Of a DNA stretch of 64,000 bases, positions 47,774 through 55,453 are shown in pieces (the stretch's first letter is position 1; each line of letters starts with the position of its first letter). Both the position numbers and the translations under genes were made by a program. Under the pieces are notes generated by a model. It saw nothing but the letters and a program-made list of their open reading frames with translations, was not told the origin of the DNA and ran no database searches. This stretch comes from Candidatus Nanoarchaeia archaeon. Its GTDB lineage: Bacteria > Patescibacteriota > Microgenomatia > Woykebacterales > RBG-16-39-9b. The stretch is taken from the NCBI GenBank assembly GCA_036514715.1, contig DATBWR010000001.1, forward strand, positions 8,644 through 72,643, in the 5' to 3' direction.

Positions 47774-48817
47774 TTAGTCTTCCCAATGGCCGCTGGTAAG
47801 GCGGTTTTTTAGTCTCCTGAGGCGCTCTGCGGCTCTGTAGGCCCAGTATTTAGGAGAAAGAGGTAAATCTTGGGCTCTTAAGTAACTGTACTTAAAGCCG
47901 CCAAAACCCCGTTTAAATAAGCTAAATCCGTACCAGGGATGACCGGGAACAAAATTTTTATCTTTGACAACACCCCAAAAATTGTAGTATTTCATTCCTC
48001 GCCGCTTAGCTTCTTTAATTGCTTCCCACTGAAGAGAGTAGCCGACTGACTGTTCAGTTTGGACAGAAGCGCCGTGCAAGTAAGAAGCCATTTCACCGTA
48101 GAAACTAATCATTGCCATTGCCAATATTTTTTTATCCTTCCCCGCCTTAAAAATACGCATTTCATTAGCAGCCGCTAAAATTTCAAATTGCTTAAGGTAA
48201 TAATCTTTGGGGTGGTTGACGAAATTTTTTCTGGTTGCAGTTGAATAAAGCATTTCAACAAACTTCTTAGCATCTTCCACTTTGTCACTGATCTCAACCA
48301 CAACACCCTGCTTGGGCTCGTTGCGTACCAAATAACGGGTAGTTTTGCGCATTTCGGCAAGTAACTCTTCCTCACTCTTGGAAAGATCAATTAACCAAGC
48401 ATCTTCAACCTGGACAAAAGTTACCGAACGTACAAAACCAAGACTTGAAAAGAGTTTTTGATTTTGGGCGTTTTCTTCCAAAGAAGGTTCAATTTTGATA
48501 AAAAGGCAGCTTTCCTCTTTGGAGAGTTTCCTAAGTTCTGAAGTTAAACTCTCAAGAGAGTTTTTGTCGAAATTTTTAACGATTGGTCCTCTGGGTACGT
48601 AAAGATAATTTCCCAAGCGGGTAGTTTCCTTAATGACTAAACAAATGCCTCCCAACTCTTCCCTACTGTAAATTCCTAGCCGGAAAATTTTTTTACCCAG
48701 TACAAGATTAAACTCTCCCCAATTCCAACTTTGTAAAAAGTTGTTAGGTGAGGTTGATAAAGAAAATTTTTCCCAAGTCTCTTTTGAGTTAAGAGGTCTA
48801 ATAGTTTGATTAGCCAC
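47774..48817 (-). CDS. FemAB-family peptidyltransferase (peptidoglycan interpeptide bridge formation)
   Basis: QSWNWGEF N-terminal motif and the ~340 aa FemABX architecture. Confidence 0.65.
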   Translation of the reverse strand: MANQTIRPLNSKETWEKFSLSTSPNNFLQSWNWGEFNLVLGKKIFRLGIYSREELGGICLVIKETTRLGNYLYVPRGPIVKNFDKNSLESLTSELRKLSKEESCLFIKIEPSLEENAQNQKLFSSLGFVRSVTFVQVEDAWLIDLSKSEEELLAEMRKTTRYLVRNEPKQGVVVEISDKVEDAKKFVEMLYSTATRKNFVNHPKDYYLKQFEILAAANEMRIFKAGKDKKILAMAMISFYGEMASYLHGASVQTEQSVGYSLQWEAIKEAKRRGMKYYNFWGVVKDKNFVPGHPWYGFSLFKRGFGGFKYSYLRAQDLPLSPKYWAYRAAERLRRLKNRLTSGHWED

Positions 48818-48835
48818 GTTTCCAGTATACCAAAG

Positions 48836-54525: not shown

Positions 54526-54610
54526 GTGGTTTACGTGTACGATTGTCAGCTGCAATAACTAAAAAAGAAAGGCAGTCAATTCCTTGACTGCCTTTGGCTA
54601 GAGCCAGTTA

Positions 54611-55453
54611 TCAGTGAGAGTAGACTCTAACGTAATCGATACTGAAGCTGGCAGGAAAGACGGTGTCTTTATTCGGTGCTCCTGGCCAGTCTCCACCAAC
54701 CGCTAAGTTCATCAGTAGAAACATTGGTTGGTCCGGGATATTGCTGGTCGAATGGAAACTCTCTTCTCCGTCTACTGACCAGGTTATTAACCCCGGAGAC
54801 CAATCTATCTGGACAACATGGAAGTCACTCGAGAAATCCACGCCGGCCAACGTTCCGCCAAGACTTTGGTGTTGCCGCCAGTCAGAACCCCAGTGGTTGG
54901 CAAAGTGCACTGTTTTAGGGTCGTGTCCGAGAATTTCAAGGACGTCGATCTCTGGGGGCCATTTCAGAGAATCTGCTAGTAACCAGACTGCTGGCCACAG
55001 GCCTGCACCCCTTGGAACTCGTACCCGCACTTCAACCCGACCGTATTTTAGGCTGAACTTCTGATAGGTGGTAAGAATTCCGGAAACGTAATTGCGGGAC
55101 TCTCCATCGTAAATAGCACTACCACGATCGGCGATAATACTGAGGAACCCGCCCCTAACTACGAGTCTGTCGGAGGTGTAAGCCTGAAGCTCGTTATTAC
55201 GCTCATCTCCCCAAGGGTCTTGTGTGTTCCATTTGCTCTGGTCAAGTCTGTTATCGTTGAACTCGTCCTGGAAAACCAGTTTCCAACTGGTCTCTTCCAG
55301 AGAACTGCTAGCCATTGTTGAACCTACTATCGACGTTGCTTCAACAGTTGGTGTTGCAACTGTGACTGGCGATGAGTCCTTTTTCTTTTGTGAGCAAGAC
55401 ATCGCCAACACGAACACAACACTCCAGAGAACAAAAGTTAATACCCTTTTCAT
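54611..55453 (-). CDS. GH16 family beta-glucanase lipoprotein
   Basis: Lipobox LAMSC and the EIDVLE catalytic motif (ExDxxE). Confidence 0.75.
   Translation of the reverse strand: MKRVLTFVLWSVVFVLAMSCSQKKKDSSPVTVATPTVEATSIVGSTMASSSLEETSWKLVFQDEFNDNRLDQSKWNTQDPWGDERNNELQAYTSDRLVVRGGFLSIIADRGSAIYDGESRNYVSGILTTYQKFSLKYGRVEVRVRVPRGAGLWPAVWLLADSLKWPPEIDVLEILGHDPKTVHFANHWGSDWRQHQSLGGTLAGVDFSSDFHVVQIDWSPGLITWSVDGEESFHSTSNIPDQPMFLLMNLAVGGDWPGAPNKDTVFPASFSIDYVRVYSH

Follow-up and report, generated by a model that had tools for sequence, protein, structure and literature searches.

Why would an enzyme that builds a polysaccharide carry, within the same chain, an enzyme that cuts one? Processive beta-glycan synthases nearly all depend on a partner hydrolase, such as BcsZ, CcsZ or KORRIGAN, and the reason for this need is debated, with chain release, quality control and length setting under discussion. 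The question is raised by a stretch of 64,000 nucleotides on contig DATBWR010000001.1 (GenBank assembly GCA_036514715.1, positions 8,644 to 72,643; the window in what follows). There, a family 2 glycosyltransferase (GT2) is fused to a family 26 glycoside hydrolase (GH26), and the gene of a second, free GH26 stands directly upstream. An earlier note on this DNA had placed the two in a locus for the production, trimming and deacetylation of a surface glycan, together with a FemAB gene, a deacetylase carrying carbohydrate-binding modules (CBM-CE4) and a GH16 enzyme. All five open reading frames (ORFs) were verified at their coordinates, and every domain call was upheld by Pfam and NCBIfam. We lean towards the view that, in a monoderm, Microgenomates-type bacterium of the candidate phyla radiation (CPR), the fusion and the free GH26 constitute a two-gene machine for synthase-dependent exopolysaccharide production, which would make and trim a beta-glucan.

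The synthase-hydrolase fusion and its free GH26 partner

The two genes and their parts are laid out as follows (TM, transmembrane helix).

48836-51460, minus strand: GT2-GH26 fusion, 874 aa (GT2 families, E 1e-12 to 5e-22; PF02156, 54 bits for a cut-off of 20.2)
51263-51457, minus strand: TM1-TM2, residues 2-66 (TM1 2-32, TM2 42-66), ahead of the GT-A domain
50453-51211, minus strand: cytoplasmic GT-A catalytic domain, residues 84-336, with D130, D188-A-D190, T277-E278-D279 and Q315-Q-R-R-W319
49817-50440, minus strand: membrane channel region, residues 341-548, from the helix map of the AlphaFold (AF2) model and hydropathy
50135-50152, minus strand: gating-loop motif FIVTIK, residues 437-442
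49757-49816, minus strand: low-confidence linker of 20 aa, residues 549-568, joining the last TM helix to GH26
48839-49756, minus strand: fused GH26 domain, residues 569-874, with the acid/base E689 in FAHEMNGGWYQWG, the nucleophile E797 in VAETSS and E642 in WEP
51552-52646, minus strand: standalone GH26, 364 aa (PF02156, 49.9 bits)
52554-52610, minus strand: N-terminal TM anchor of the standalone GH26, residues 13-31, by hydropathy
51555-52373, minus strand: catalytic domain of the standalone GH26, residues ~92-364, with the acid/base E199 and the nucleophile E303

By its sequence and its predicted structure, the synthase half is a processive, membrane-embedded GT2 of the BcsA/CesA type, with complete catalytic and gating motifs and a predicted channel of its own. 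The motifs of the fusion can be read directly (LNDG128, DAD188, TED277, QQRRW315, FIVTIK437, then HEMNG688 and AETS796 in the hydrolase half). In an alignment of 35 fusions, D130, D188, D190, T277-E278-D279, Q315-Q316, R318 and W319 are invariant, as are E642, E689 and E797 of the GH26 domain. M1 and TM1 are kept in homologues, which supports the choice of the long start codon. When searched against the PDB, residues 27-498 match BcsA (E 6e-34), and none of the PDB sequence matches of the fusion is a chitin synthase, a hyaluronan synthase (HAS) or PgaC. The AF2 model, built on the alignment of 35 homologues, has a pLDDT of 86.9. Its top Foldseek matches are BcsA (9b8v/4p00, E 4e-26, TMt 0.5-0.58, ~535-560 aligned columns), with plant CesA, HAS and chitin synthases ranked far lower. 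The NCBIfam models score as follows: CelA TIGR03030 at 187 bits (cut-off 699), the BcsA model at 119 (cut-off 992), PgaC TIGR03937 at 52.6 (cut-off 422) and NodC at 20. The gating loop points the same way, as FxVTxK is the signature found in BcsA (FAVTAK503-508) and in RiGT2 of Romboutsia ilealis (FNVTLK439-444) (PMC10374906), while hyaluronan synthases read WGTSGRK/R at this position (PMC11750622). A non-processive, dolichol-phosphate (Dpm1/DPMS)-type GT2 was considered and rejected in view of the QQRRW motif and the seven TM helices; the archaeal mannosyltransferase 6yv7 comes only 38th in Foldseek (E 8e-11), behind BcsA, CesA and HAS.

The topology of the fusion departs from that of BcsA at one point. 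In the AF2 helix map, the channel region contains helices 356-373, 383-404, 408-430 (the interface helix), 454-473 and 480-505, followed by a charged, cytoplasmic amphipathic helix (509-523) and by an extra hydrophobic helix (529-548). In BcsA, the two helices past the gating loop bring the chain back to the cytoplasm, where the PilZ domain is located. The fusion has one helix more. Counted from the gating loop, which is cytoplasmic, the chain thus crosses the membrane an odd number of times, and the fused GH26 domain would lie outside the cell. No PilZ domain is found in the fusion by Pfam or NCBIfam, and residues 503-874 are accounted for by a helix, a TM segment and GH26.

Both hydrolase domains have CtLic26A, the GH26 module of C. 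thermocellum CelH, as their best solved relative, with its catalytic residues E109 and E222 aligned. Residues 604-845 of the fusion match it with an E of 4.5e-43 (2v3g, PDB sequence search), and the model of the fused domain superimposes on it with a Foldseek TMt of 0.86 (2cip). The standalone copy matches it with an E of 2e-47 (2bvd), E199 being aligned with E109 and E303 with E222. In the latter copy, the motifs read HEMNG198 and SEIAS302, and E154, H198, E199, N201 and E303 are invariant in all 34 close homologues, 22 of which have an N-terminal hydrophobic segment. A hydrophilic tether of ~60 aa, rich in Ser, Thr and Gln, separates its anchor from the catalytic domain. Mannanases and xylanases match either copy only at E 1e-10 or weaker. 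The (beta/alpha)8 barrel, the acid/base Glu following strand 4 (HE motif) and the nucleophile Glu following strand 7 that characterize GH26 (clan GH-A) are present in both copies, and PF02156 is above its cut-off in both. Judged by similarity, the two GH26 domains would thus be of the CtLic26A (lichenase) type, with intact catalytic Glu residues.

These results agree with what the earlier note had seen in the two genes. The processive multi-TM GT2 joined to a clan GH-A domain is supported by motifs, Pfam and AF2/Foldseek alike, the BcsA and CtLic26A folds both being recovered in the model. The assignment of the FAHEMNGxWYxWG signature to GH26 was right, as indicated by PF02156 and the CtLic26A matches. 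The membrane-anchored paralogue was correctly placed immediately upstream of the fusion (TM anchor 13-31, PF02156).

Conservation of the pair and comparison with known systems

Is the fused-plus-free arrangement a local accident? The genomic context was surveyed in 22 genome loci and several metagenome contigs, the ORFs of which were searched with each window protein; this gave 13 distinct CPR fusion loci. In CPR, 59 full-length homologues of the fusion were found, at 46-100% identity. The free GH26 gene stands directly upstream of the fusion gene in 12 of the 13 loci, the exception being L009. The fusion extends further: when HMMER was run exhaustively over 1.84 billion cluster representatives, the GT2-to-GH26 fusion occurred in 57 of the best 147 (50%-identity clusters), at 27-52% identity and with lengths of 621-1388 aa. 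The DxD and ED motifs and the T and K of the gating loop are kept in essentially all 57. Both of the non-CPR fusion contexts that were examined have a separate GH26 gene adjoining the fusion: L030, from a metagenome-assembled genome (MAG) of Actinomycetota, and L031, from a lineage in which the partner GH26 bears cell-wall-binding repeats. The fused-plus-free GH26 pair is a conserved unit across phyla.

The association is also found in looser forms. In L028, the fusion is replaced by an unfused version, three CtLic26A-like GH26 genes flanking a PilZ-bearing, BcsA-like GT2. In L027, a CtLic26A-like GH26 gene lies within a Wzx/Wzy cluster, echoing WpsE of Actinoplanes missouriensis, a GH26 encoded in a biosynthetic cluster (PMC13390465). 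Elsewhere (L029), such a gene stands alone with no synthase nearby. CtLic26A-type GH26 enzymes, usually auto-annotated as 'beta-mannanase', are recurrent partners of polysaccharide synthases.

Other variants were encountered. Two distant GT2-GH26 fusions carry a third domain, an extracytoplasmic TIM-barrel: that of P0270 (1330 aa) resembles GH72 glucanosyltransferases (28.8 bits for a cut-off of 25.9), and that of P0279 (1289 aa) is GH2_C-like (GH2-TIM-like) and is followed by a PKD-like domain. On a related 1.6-Mb CPR chromosome (L005, 3182-19908), the GH26/GT2-GH26 pair is part of a larger surface-glycan island containing two small chitin-synthase/PgaC-like GT2s, two large CE4 proteins, two sortases and a GH10.

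The two GH26 copies of the window share only 34% identity with one another and 45-69% with their respective counterparts in other genomes, which indicates that the duplication is old. In a neighbour-joining tree of GH26, the CPR fused copies form a clade with 99% bootstrap and the CPR free copies another with 100%; CtLic26A clusters with the CPR standalone copies (55%).

A literature search on GT2-GH26 fusions or CPR cellulose synthases returned no description, and a large review of Bcs systems mentions no synthase-hydrolase fusion (PMC8892547). The fusion is uncharacterized yet widespread in metagenomes, and not rare. The word 'unusual', which the earlier note had applied to it, holds relative to characterized systems and does not hold for its occurrence.

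How does the pair compare with known systems? Like BcsA with its GH8 partner BcsZ, or like the clostridial Ccs system, it combines a processive GT2 (D, DxD, TED, QxxRW and FxVTxK, with its own channel) with an endoglucanase encoded alongside; in monoderm Clostridia, the GH5 enzyme CcsZ is membrane-tethered (PMC8892547). However, the hydrolase is here a lichenase-type GH26 instead of a GH8 or a GH5, and one copy is fused after an extra TM helix. In addition, only two TM helices precede the GT domain, and there is no PilZ/cyclic di-GMP module and no BcsB, BcsC or acyltransferase gene. BcsB, BcsC and GH8 genes were found neither in the window nor in the related loci examined. The locus is therefore of none of the Bcs types I-III, which have PilZ on the synthase, BcsB and the GH8 BcsZ. 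Nor is it of the Pga/Ica type, with a PgaC/IcaA-type GT2 of ~410 aa, PgaD/IcaD and PgaB/IcaB, the PgaB/IcaB models giving only 21-29 bits for cut-offs of 248-322.

The closest architectural analogue is the tunicate CesA, a seven-TM GT2 with a GH6 domain after TM7 and a free GH6-1 paralogue in the genome, which was described as being without counterpart in the databases (PMC6523144). The layout is the same as here. However, the tunicate GH6 is inverting and unrelated to the retaining GH26, the host is a eukaryote and the origins are independent, so that the architecture is convergent. TM-anchored mannanases of Arabidopsis offer a further parallel, as companion hydrolases for plant glucomannan (PMC13181414).

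The bacterial (1,3;1,4)-beta-glucan synthases, RiGT2 and BgsA of Sinorhizobium, are likewise BcsA-like GT2s. RiGT2, the sequence of which was rebuilt from the supplementary alignment of its paper, is 29% identical to the window enzyme over 397 aa and has the same two-TM N-terminus, its motifs lying at nearly the same positions (RiGT2 first: D139/D130, DAD186-188/188-190 and FNVTLK439/FIVTIK437). It works without BcsB, and its C-terminal PilZ domain is essential for activity (PMC10374906). In contrast, the window enzyme has a TM helix and GH26 at the PilZ position, and RiGT2 has no described hydrolase partner. The lichenase-type partners would fit a mixed-linkage product like that of RiGT2, as far as the product can be judged from similarity. 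CtLic26A itself is a catabolic module, secreted as part of a multi-domain cellulosomal enzyme, whereas the GH26 copies considered here are tethered or fused to a synthase.

Finally, the poly-N-acetylglucosamine (PNAG) systems, PgaC/PgaB and IcaA/IcaB, share the logic of a synthase, a CE4 deacetylase and a hydrolase. Here, however, the GT2 is not PgaC-like, PgaD/IcaD is absent, the hydrolase is not a GH153 and the CE4 enzyme is of a CBM22-type modular form that is absent from most loci.

Accessory and neighbouring genes

Which of the surrounding genes belong with the pair? The features concerned are the following (ECF, extracytoplasmic function).

52831-54525, plus strand: CBM-CE4, 564 aa (PF01522, E 2e-23, C-terminal; PF02018 CBM_4_9 weak, 22.6 bits, below cut-off)
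52918-53370, plus strand: CBM22/CBM4_9-like beta-sandwich repeat 1, residues 30-180
53383-53844, plus strand: CBM22/CBM4_9-like beta-sandwich repeat 2, residues 185-338
53863-54522, plus strand: NodB/CE4 domain, residues 345-564, with the base D354, the metal ligands D355-H408-H412 and the acid H518
54611-55453, minus strand: GH16, 280 aa (PF00722, E 3e-23)
54568-54595: hairpin with a 12-bp stem, likely a bidirectional terminator, between the convergent CE4 and GH16 genes
51461-51504, minus strand: fusion gene promoter, CTTATAACTTGCAG-N17-TATACT-ATAAGTC-ATG, near-leaderless, the -10 ending 7 nt before ATG
52783-52819, plus strand: CE4 promoter, CCTATAGCTTGACA-N17-TATAAT, 12/12 of the sigma-70 consensus, with a CCTATAG box ahead
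55502-55539, minus strand: GH16 promoter, CCTATAGCATTGACA-N17-TATACT, 11/12, with the same CCTATAG box
56459-57001, plus strand: ECF sigma gene (Pfam)
57002-57715, plus strand: DUF5667 gene, putative anti-sigma, abutting the ECF sigma gene (Pfam)
47774-48817, minus strand: FemAB (PF02388, E 4e-39)

The CBM-CE4 protein was correctly described in the earlier note as two CBM-like repeats followed by a NodB/CE4 domain. The repeats are 45% identical to one another. The CE4 motifs are TFDDG352, HTITH408 and LVFH515, the first two aligning with those of solved CE4 enzymes; D354, D355, H408, H412 and H518 are invariant in 34 CE4 homologues, and the Asp-His-His metal triad is complete. At the position of motif 3 (RxPY), the Arg of which supports the catalytic base in CE4 enzymes, the sequence reads ASPFG, with no canonical Arg; an invariant R468 is found elsewhere. 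Three outcomes had been named beforehand as fatal to the proposal (C-terminal domains matching no GH family, a dolichol-phosphate-type GT2, a broken CE4 triad); what was found instead is a GH26 match, a processive GT2 and an intact triad. The AF2 model of the protein (pLDDT 91) has the tandem CBM22-1/CBM22-2 of a Paenibacillus xylanase as its best Foldseek match (4xup, E 9e-18), and its CE4 part matches PdaC and Xyl-CE4. CBM22 modules of this kind bind xylan and beta-1,3/1,4-glucan. The protein would be a secreted or anchored deacetylase or esterase, accessory to the pair and co-regulated with it.

The gene-order evidence on a link of CE4 to the synthase clade is mixed. An orthologue of CBM-CE4 lies beside the module in 3 of the 13 CPR loci (the window, L001 and L024), and CE4 is absent within 7-10 kb in the other 10 as well as in both fusion loci from other lineages. 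Orthologues are very common in general (865 matches); in Dactylosporangium and in one Saccharibacteria genome they adjoin small NodC/PgaC-like GT2s, the order in the Saccharibacteria locus L035 being CBM-CE4, GH16, GT2, GH6. Next to the ~60%-identical, unfused GT2 of Abditibacteriota (L013, L015), neither GH26 nor CE4 is found; GH43, PAP2 and UvrA stand there instead. In a sister clade, the hydrolase domain has been swapped: P0068 and P0069 (L032, 8001-10496), with a GT2 57-60% identical to that of the window, have a C-terminal CE4 in the place of GH26. This architecture resembles that of Streptomyces MatB, a GT2-CE4 fusion. In L012 (7187-9538) and L033 (5908-7164), a large CE4-PA14 or CE4-Big_13 gene lies immediately upstream of a ~60%-identical GT2. 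The CE4 domains of P0068 and P0069 were considered as orthologues of the window CE4 and rejected, at 23-26% identity.

The GH16 protein has the catalytic motif EIDVLE168-173 (ExDxxE, the beta-bulge form). Its best PDB matches are the Thermotoga laminarinases 4dfs/3azx (E 4e-43), ahead of Bacillus lichenases (~1e-11), which suggests an endo-beta-1,3(4)-glucanase of the laminarinase type. Its N-terminus (…FVLAMSC20) fits the PROSITE lipoprotein pattern, so that we take it to be a probable lipoprotein. Of the GH16 lipoprotein announced by the earlier note, the family stands (PF00722, laminarinase matches) and the lipoprotein nature is only probable. The gene lies beside the module in the window and in none of the other 12 CPR fusion loci. 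CE4 and GH16 had been said to follow divergently; GH16 in fact converges on CE4, with which it shares the hairpin at 54568-54595.

A firmer connection is found in the promoters. Over the region, 18 promoters and 11 terminators were predicted, for 14.7 and 9.9 in shuffled sequences, which is not above expectation; what carries information is limited to the specific composite motifs. The GH16 and CE4 genes are each monocistronic, with a strong promoter of their own. In L001, L005, L009, L011 and L020, the fusion gene is preceded by CCTATAG(C/T)TTGAC-N17-TATAAT/TATACT (positions 7957, 10647, 9881, 5323 and 6452, respectively), and the fusion promoter of the window is a degenerate version of it. 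The exact 13-mer of the CE4 promoter occurs once in the 64-kb window, before CE4, and once in each of these five loci, just upstream of the fusion. A second CCTATAG often follows directly past the -10. In 1.28 Mb, both strands included, CTATAG-N0-3-TTGAC occurs eight times: five times before fusion genes, twice before CE4 and GH16 of the window, and once in L021 before a 413-aa ORF without Pfam match. CTATAG is palindromic, and the paired boxes resemble a putative operator pair bracketing a sigma-70 promoter. This shared CCTATAG-flanked motif is evidence that CE4, GH16 and the synthase would form one regulon in this lineage.

The ECF sigma/DUF5667 pair is a second candidate regulator. In Blackburnbacteria and in L007, an orthologous pair is found between the gene of the free GH26 and that of the fusion. 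In these two CPR lineages, an ECF-type motif, GTTACGTTT-N13-TTCGTT, stands ahead of the fusion gene and, in L007, also of the sigma gene, with one unrelated match elsewhere; this is the pattern that would be expected for an autoregulated ECF sigma factor and its target. The motif is located at 8348 and 9946 in L007, at 7946 in L002-L004 and at 9790 in L006. The window has exactly two copies of the 9-mer AACTTGCAG, at 56430-56438 (29 nt before the sigma start) and at 51491-51499 (39 nt before the fusion start). These observations are suggestive of a control of the window synthase gene by the pair.

FemAB does not belong here. The gene is genuine, as the PF02388 match indicates, and was said to overlap the synthase operon; it lies downstream of the synthase gene after an 18-nt gap and has its own extended -10. 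No FemAB homologue is found within 10 kb of the other fusion genes (the 12 other CPR loci and the two from other lineages). FemAB, TauE and MurT, near the fusion only in the window, were rejected as members of the module. FemAB is a separate peptidoglycan gene, outside the synthase system. Downstream, 3 kb from it, lie the genes of MurT (lipid II isoglutaminyl synthase subunit) and of a GatD-like amidotransferase (42898-45033), and the three genes form a neighbourhood for peptidoglycan stem-peptide modification, unrelated to the glycan module.

Of the locus as the earlier note saw it, the make-and-trim logic is retained. Conservation as neighbours is lacking for CE4 (3 of 13 loci) and for GH16 (the window only). 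Their link to the synthase is drawn from the shared promoter motif and from the recurrent association of CE4 with the wider GT2 clade.

As for the host, the window encodes bacterial markers (gyrase, a class A penicillin-binding protein, MurT/GatD, FemAB, a type IV pilus cluster, aminoacyl-tRNA synthetases), and the best relatives of its proteins are from Microgenomates-group CPR bacteria. NCBI lists the identical proteins (P0001 and P0408; 48836-51460 and 52831-54525) as 'MAG TPA: ... [Candidatus Nanoarchaeia archaeon]'. The bacterial genes and the CPR relatives make it probable that the source MAG was mis-binned or misclassified. Among related contigs, several that bear the label 'uncultured Gammaproteobacteria' or 'Firmicutes' resemble CPR too.

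Further observations concern the rest of the window. The type IV pilus cluster (11568-23091) is of the kind typically found in CPR episymbionts and comprises PilB-like and PilT-like ATPases, PilC, PilM, PilO, a prepilin peptidase and a pseudopilin that bears an N-methylation motif. The longest ORF of a uridine-kinase-like gene (42157-42849, minus strand) overlaps a tRNA-Leu on the same strand (42771-42855), and its true start is probably further downstream. Two small adjacent ORFs without Pfam match (45285-45836 and 45969-46571) are 53% and 36% identical to a single ORF of L007 and are thus tandem paralogues, one having a weak NCBIfam match to a peptidoglycan hydrolase (E 1.5e-5). At 60543-63024, a cluster of seven tRNAs (Leu-taa, Leu-cag, Leu-gag, Val-tac, Phe, Pro and others nearby) is interspersed with small ORFs. 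A sugar aminotransferase of the DegT/DnrJ/EryC1 type (59279-60472, minus strand), 4 kb past GH16, could serve another surface-glycan pathway, and the palindromic CCTATAGG is found at 58890-58897 within an adjoining ORF of no assigned family.

Product, alternatives and meaning

What would the pair do? It may be imagined that the GT2 polymerizes a hexose from a cytoplasmic UDP-sugar, most likely UDP-glucose, and extrudes the chain through its own channel. The seventh helix, at the position of the PilZ domain of BcsA, would set the retaining GH26 on a 20-residue leash at the channel exit. There, this domain would cut or transglycosylate the nascent chain, thereby setting its length and releasing the product, a role that separate proteins (BcsZ, CcsZ or KORRIGAN) play in other systems. 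The second GH26, on its tether of ~60 residues from the N-terminal anchor, would process the polymer further out from the membrane. The product may carry acetyl groups, to be removed by CE4. CE4 and GH16 would be expressed from the CCTATAG-flanked sigma-70 promoter that the fusion genes of relatives use, with ECF sigma/DUF5667 probably also involved.

By similarity, the product is probably a beta-glucan of one kind or another. The presence of both beta-1,3 and beta-1,4 links appears most likely, because the synthase resembles BcsA, CesA and RiGT2, the GH26s are of the lichenase type, the GH16 is of the laminarinase type, the CBMs are CBM22/4-like and a distant relative carries a GH72-like domain. 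That it would be a mixed-linkage glucan specifically is put forward as a tentative assignment, in which our confidence is less than even.

Several points weigh against this reading. At 22-29% identity to BcsA and RiGT2, the sugar and the linkages are not readable from the sequence. To our knowledge, CtLic26A is the sole characterized GH26 lichenase, and the transfer of its specificity at ~32-45% identity is uncertain. The extracytoplasmic placement of the fused GH26 follows from a count of helices, not from model coordinates. Moreover, with an endo-lichenase attached to it, a mixed-linkage synthase should see its product broken down into oligosaccharides, unless the hydrolase is held in check. 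The ECF link in this genome rests on one shared 9-mer. In the neighbour-joining tree, most fused-type GH26 domains group together across phyla, with a bootstrap of 33%; this is suggestive and does not demonstrate one ancient fusion event. The GT2 clade at ~60% identity is repeatedly paired with CE4 (as a fusion in P0068 and P0069, as a neighbouring gene in L012 and L033), which would fit an N-acetylated polymer better than a plain glucan. Finally, the authors of the RiGT2 study could not tell cellulose from mixed-linkage synthesis by models (PMC10374906).

The CE4 pairing leads to the first alternative, in which the product is an N-acetylhexosamine polymer (PNAG-like, chitin-like or resembling the poly-N-acetylmannosamine of the Listeria Pss system), partly de-N-acetylated by CE4 and then cleaved by GH26 at the deacetylated sites, as PgaB cleaves deacetylated PNAG. 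BcsA-like GT2s can indeed polymerize N-acetylmannosamine, as in the Pss system. The active-site residues of CE4 are intact, its gene bears the promoter motif by which relatives drive their synthase gene, and CE4 recurs with the GT2 clade, at the very position of GH26 in P0068 and P0069 and next to the GT2 in L012, L033, L001, L024 and the window. However, the synthase itself does not resemble those of aminosugar polymers: PgaC (53 bits) and NodC (20) score far below CelA (187), chitin synthases, HAS and PgaC are missing from the PDB sequence matches, and the gating loop reads FxVTxK, not WGTxxK/R. No GH26 member in CAZy is known to be active on N-acetylhexosamine or hexosamine, and a 2-acetamido group at subsite -1 is not tolerated by the classical two-Glu retaining mechanism. 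The absence of CE4 from 10 of the 13 CPR loci and from both loci of other lineages implies that deacetylation is not obligatory for GH26 action. The CBM-CE4 orthologues found elsewhere pair with small NodC/PgaC-like GT2s, and the CE4 of P0068 and P0069 is only distantly related to that of the window. We therefore regard an aminosugar product as unlikely. The analogy with PNAG or chitosan-like systems drawn in the earlier note fits poorly on the same scores, and also in view of the lichenase-type GH26s, the laminarinase-type GH16 and the CBM22/4-like modules.

A second alternative concerns the reaction. Retaining GH-A enzymes are able to transglycosylate, and the GH26 domains might mainly serve to graft the nascent glucan onto another wall polymer or onto itself, in the manner of fungal Crh and Gas proteins, thereby building a glucan layer around the CPR cell instead of trimming an exopolysaccharide. 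Such an activity would explain why an endo-hydrolase should be fused to its own synthase, which is otherwise a paradox. The short leash at the channel exit, the glucanosyltransferase-like domain of P0270 and the cell-wall-binding repeats of the partner GH26 in L031 are consistent with it. On the other hand, CtLic26A is a hydrolase, and the GH72 match is weak and confined to one distant subgroup; we hold this idea to be somewhat less probable still than an aminosugar product.

As to a catabolic role, in which GH26, GH16 and CBM-CE4 would scavenge environmental or host beta-glucan and hemicellulose beside a synthase placed there by chance or unrelated to them, it is true that CtLic26A, GH16 laminarinases and CBM22-CE4 esterases are classic modules for the degradation of plant and algal cell walls, that lone CtLic26A-like genes exist (L029) and that GH16 and CE4 have strong promoters of their own, but this is very improbable given that across phyla the synthase and one GH26 are a single covalent chain with the free copy as its constant neighbour, that the GH26 copies are membrane-tethered and the GH16 a probable lipoprotein, hence not released, that no sugar transporter or downstream catabolic gene is among the adjacent genes, that a promoter motif is held in common with synthase genes, and that GH26 genes also occur inside Wzx/Wzy biosynthetic clusters (L027, WpsE of A. 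missouriensis).

The two-gene machine that makes and trims a beta-glucan is thus the reading that we retain. A bolder version of it may be envisaged, in which an ancient cross-phylum machine would graft a mixed-linkage or beta-1,3 glucan to the envelope by means of an obligatory chain-terminating or transglycosylating GH26, under ECF-sigma (envelope-stress) control; taken as a whole, this version is unlikely.

What does the locus mean for the question raised at the outset? In the predicted arrangement, the hydrolase would be welded to the synthase at the channel exit, in a fixed 1:1 stoichiometry and on a 20-residue leash, with a second tethered copy alongside. This offers a natural, genetically simple two-gene system bearing on why glycan synthases need hydrolases. 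The CesA-GH6 layout of tunicates, thought to be unique, has widespread bacterial analogues, and GH26 proteins that carry the automatic annotation 'beta-mannanase' often serve synthases as biosynthetic partners. If the product is of mixed linkage, a large new clade would be added to the very few known bacterial synthases of such glucans. Genome-reduced CPR bacteria would invest in a self-made surface glycan, which is relevant to host attachment. Should the ancient grafting machine prove true, it would give these ultra-small cells a self-made glucan coat, and would be a convergent bacterial counterpart of the tunicate CesA-GH6.

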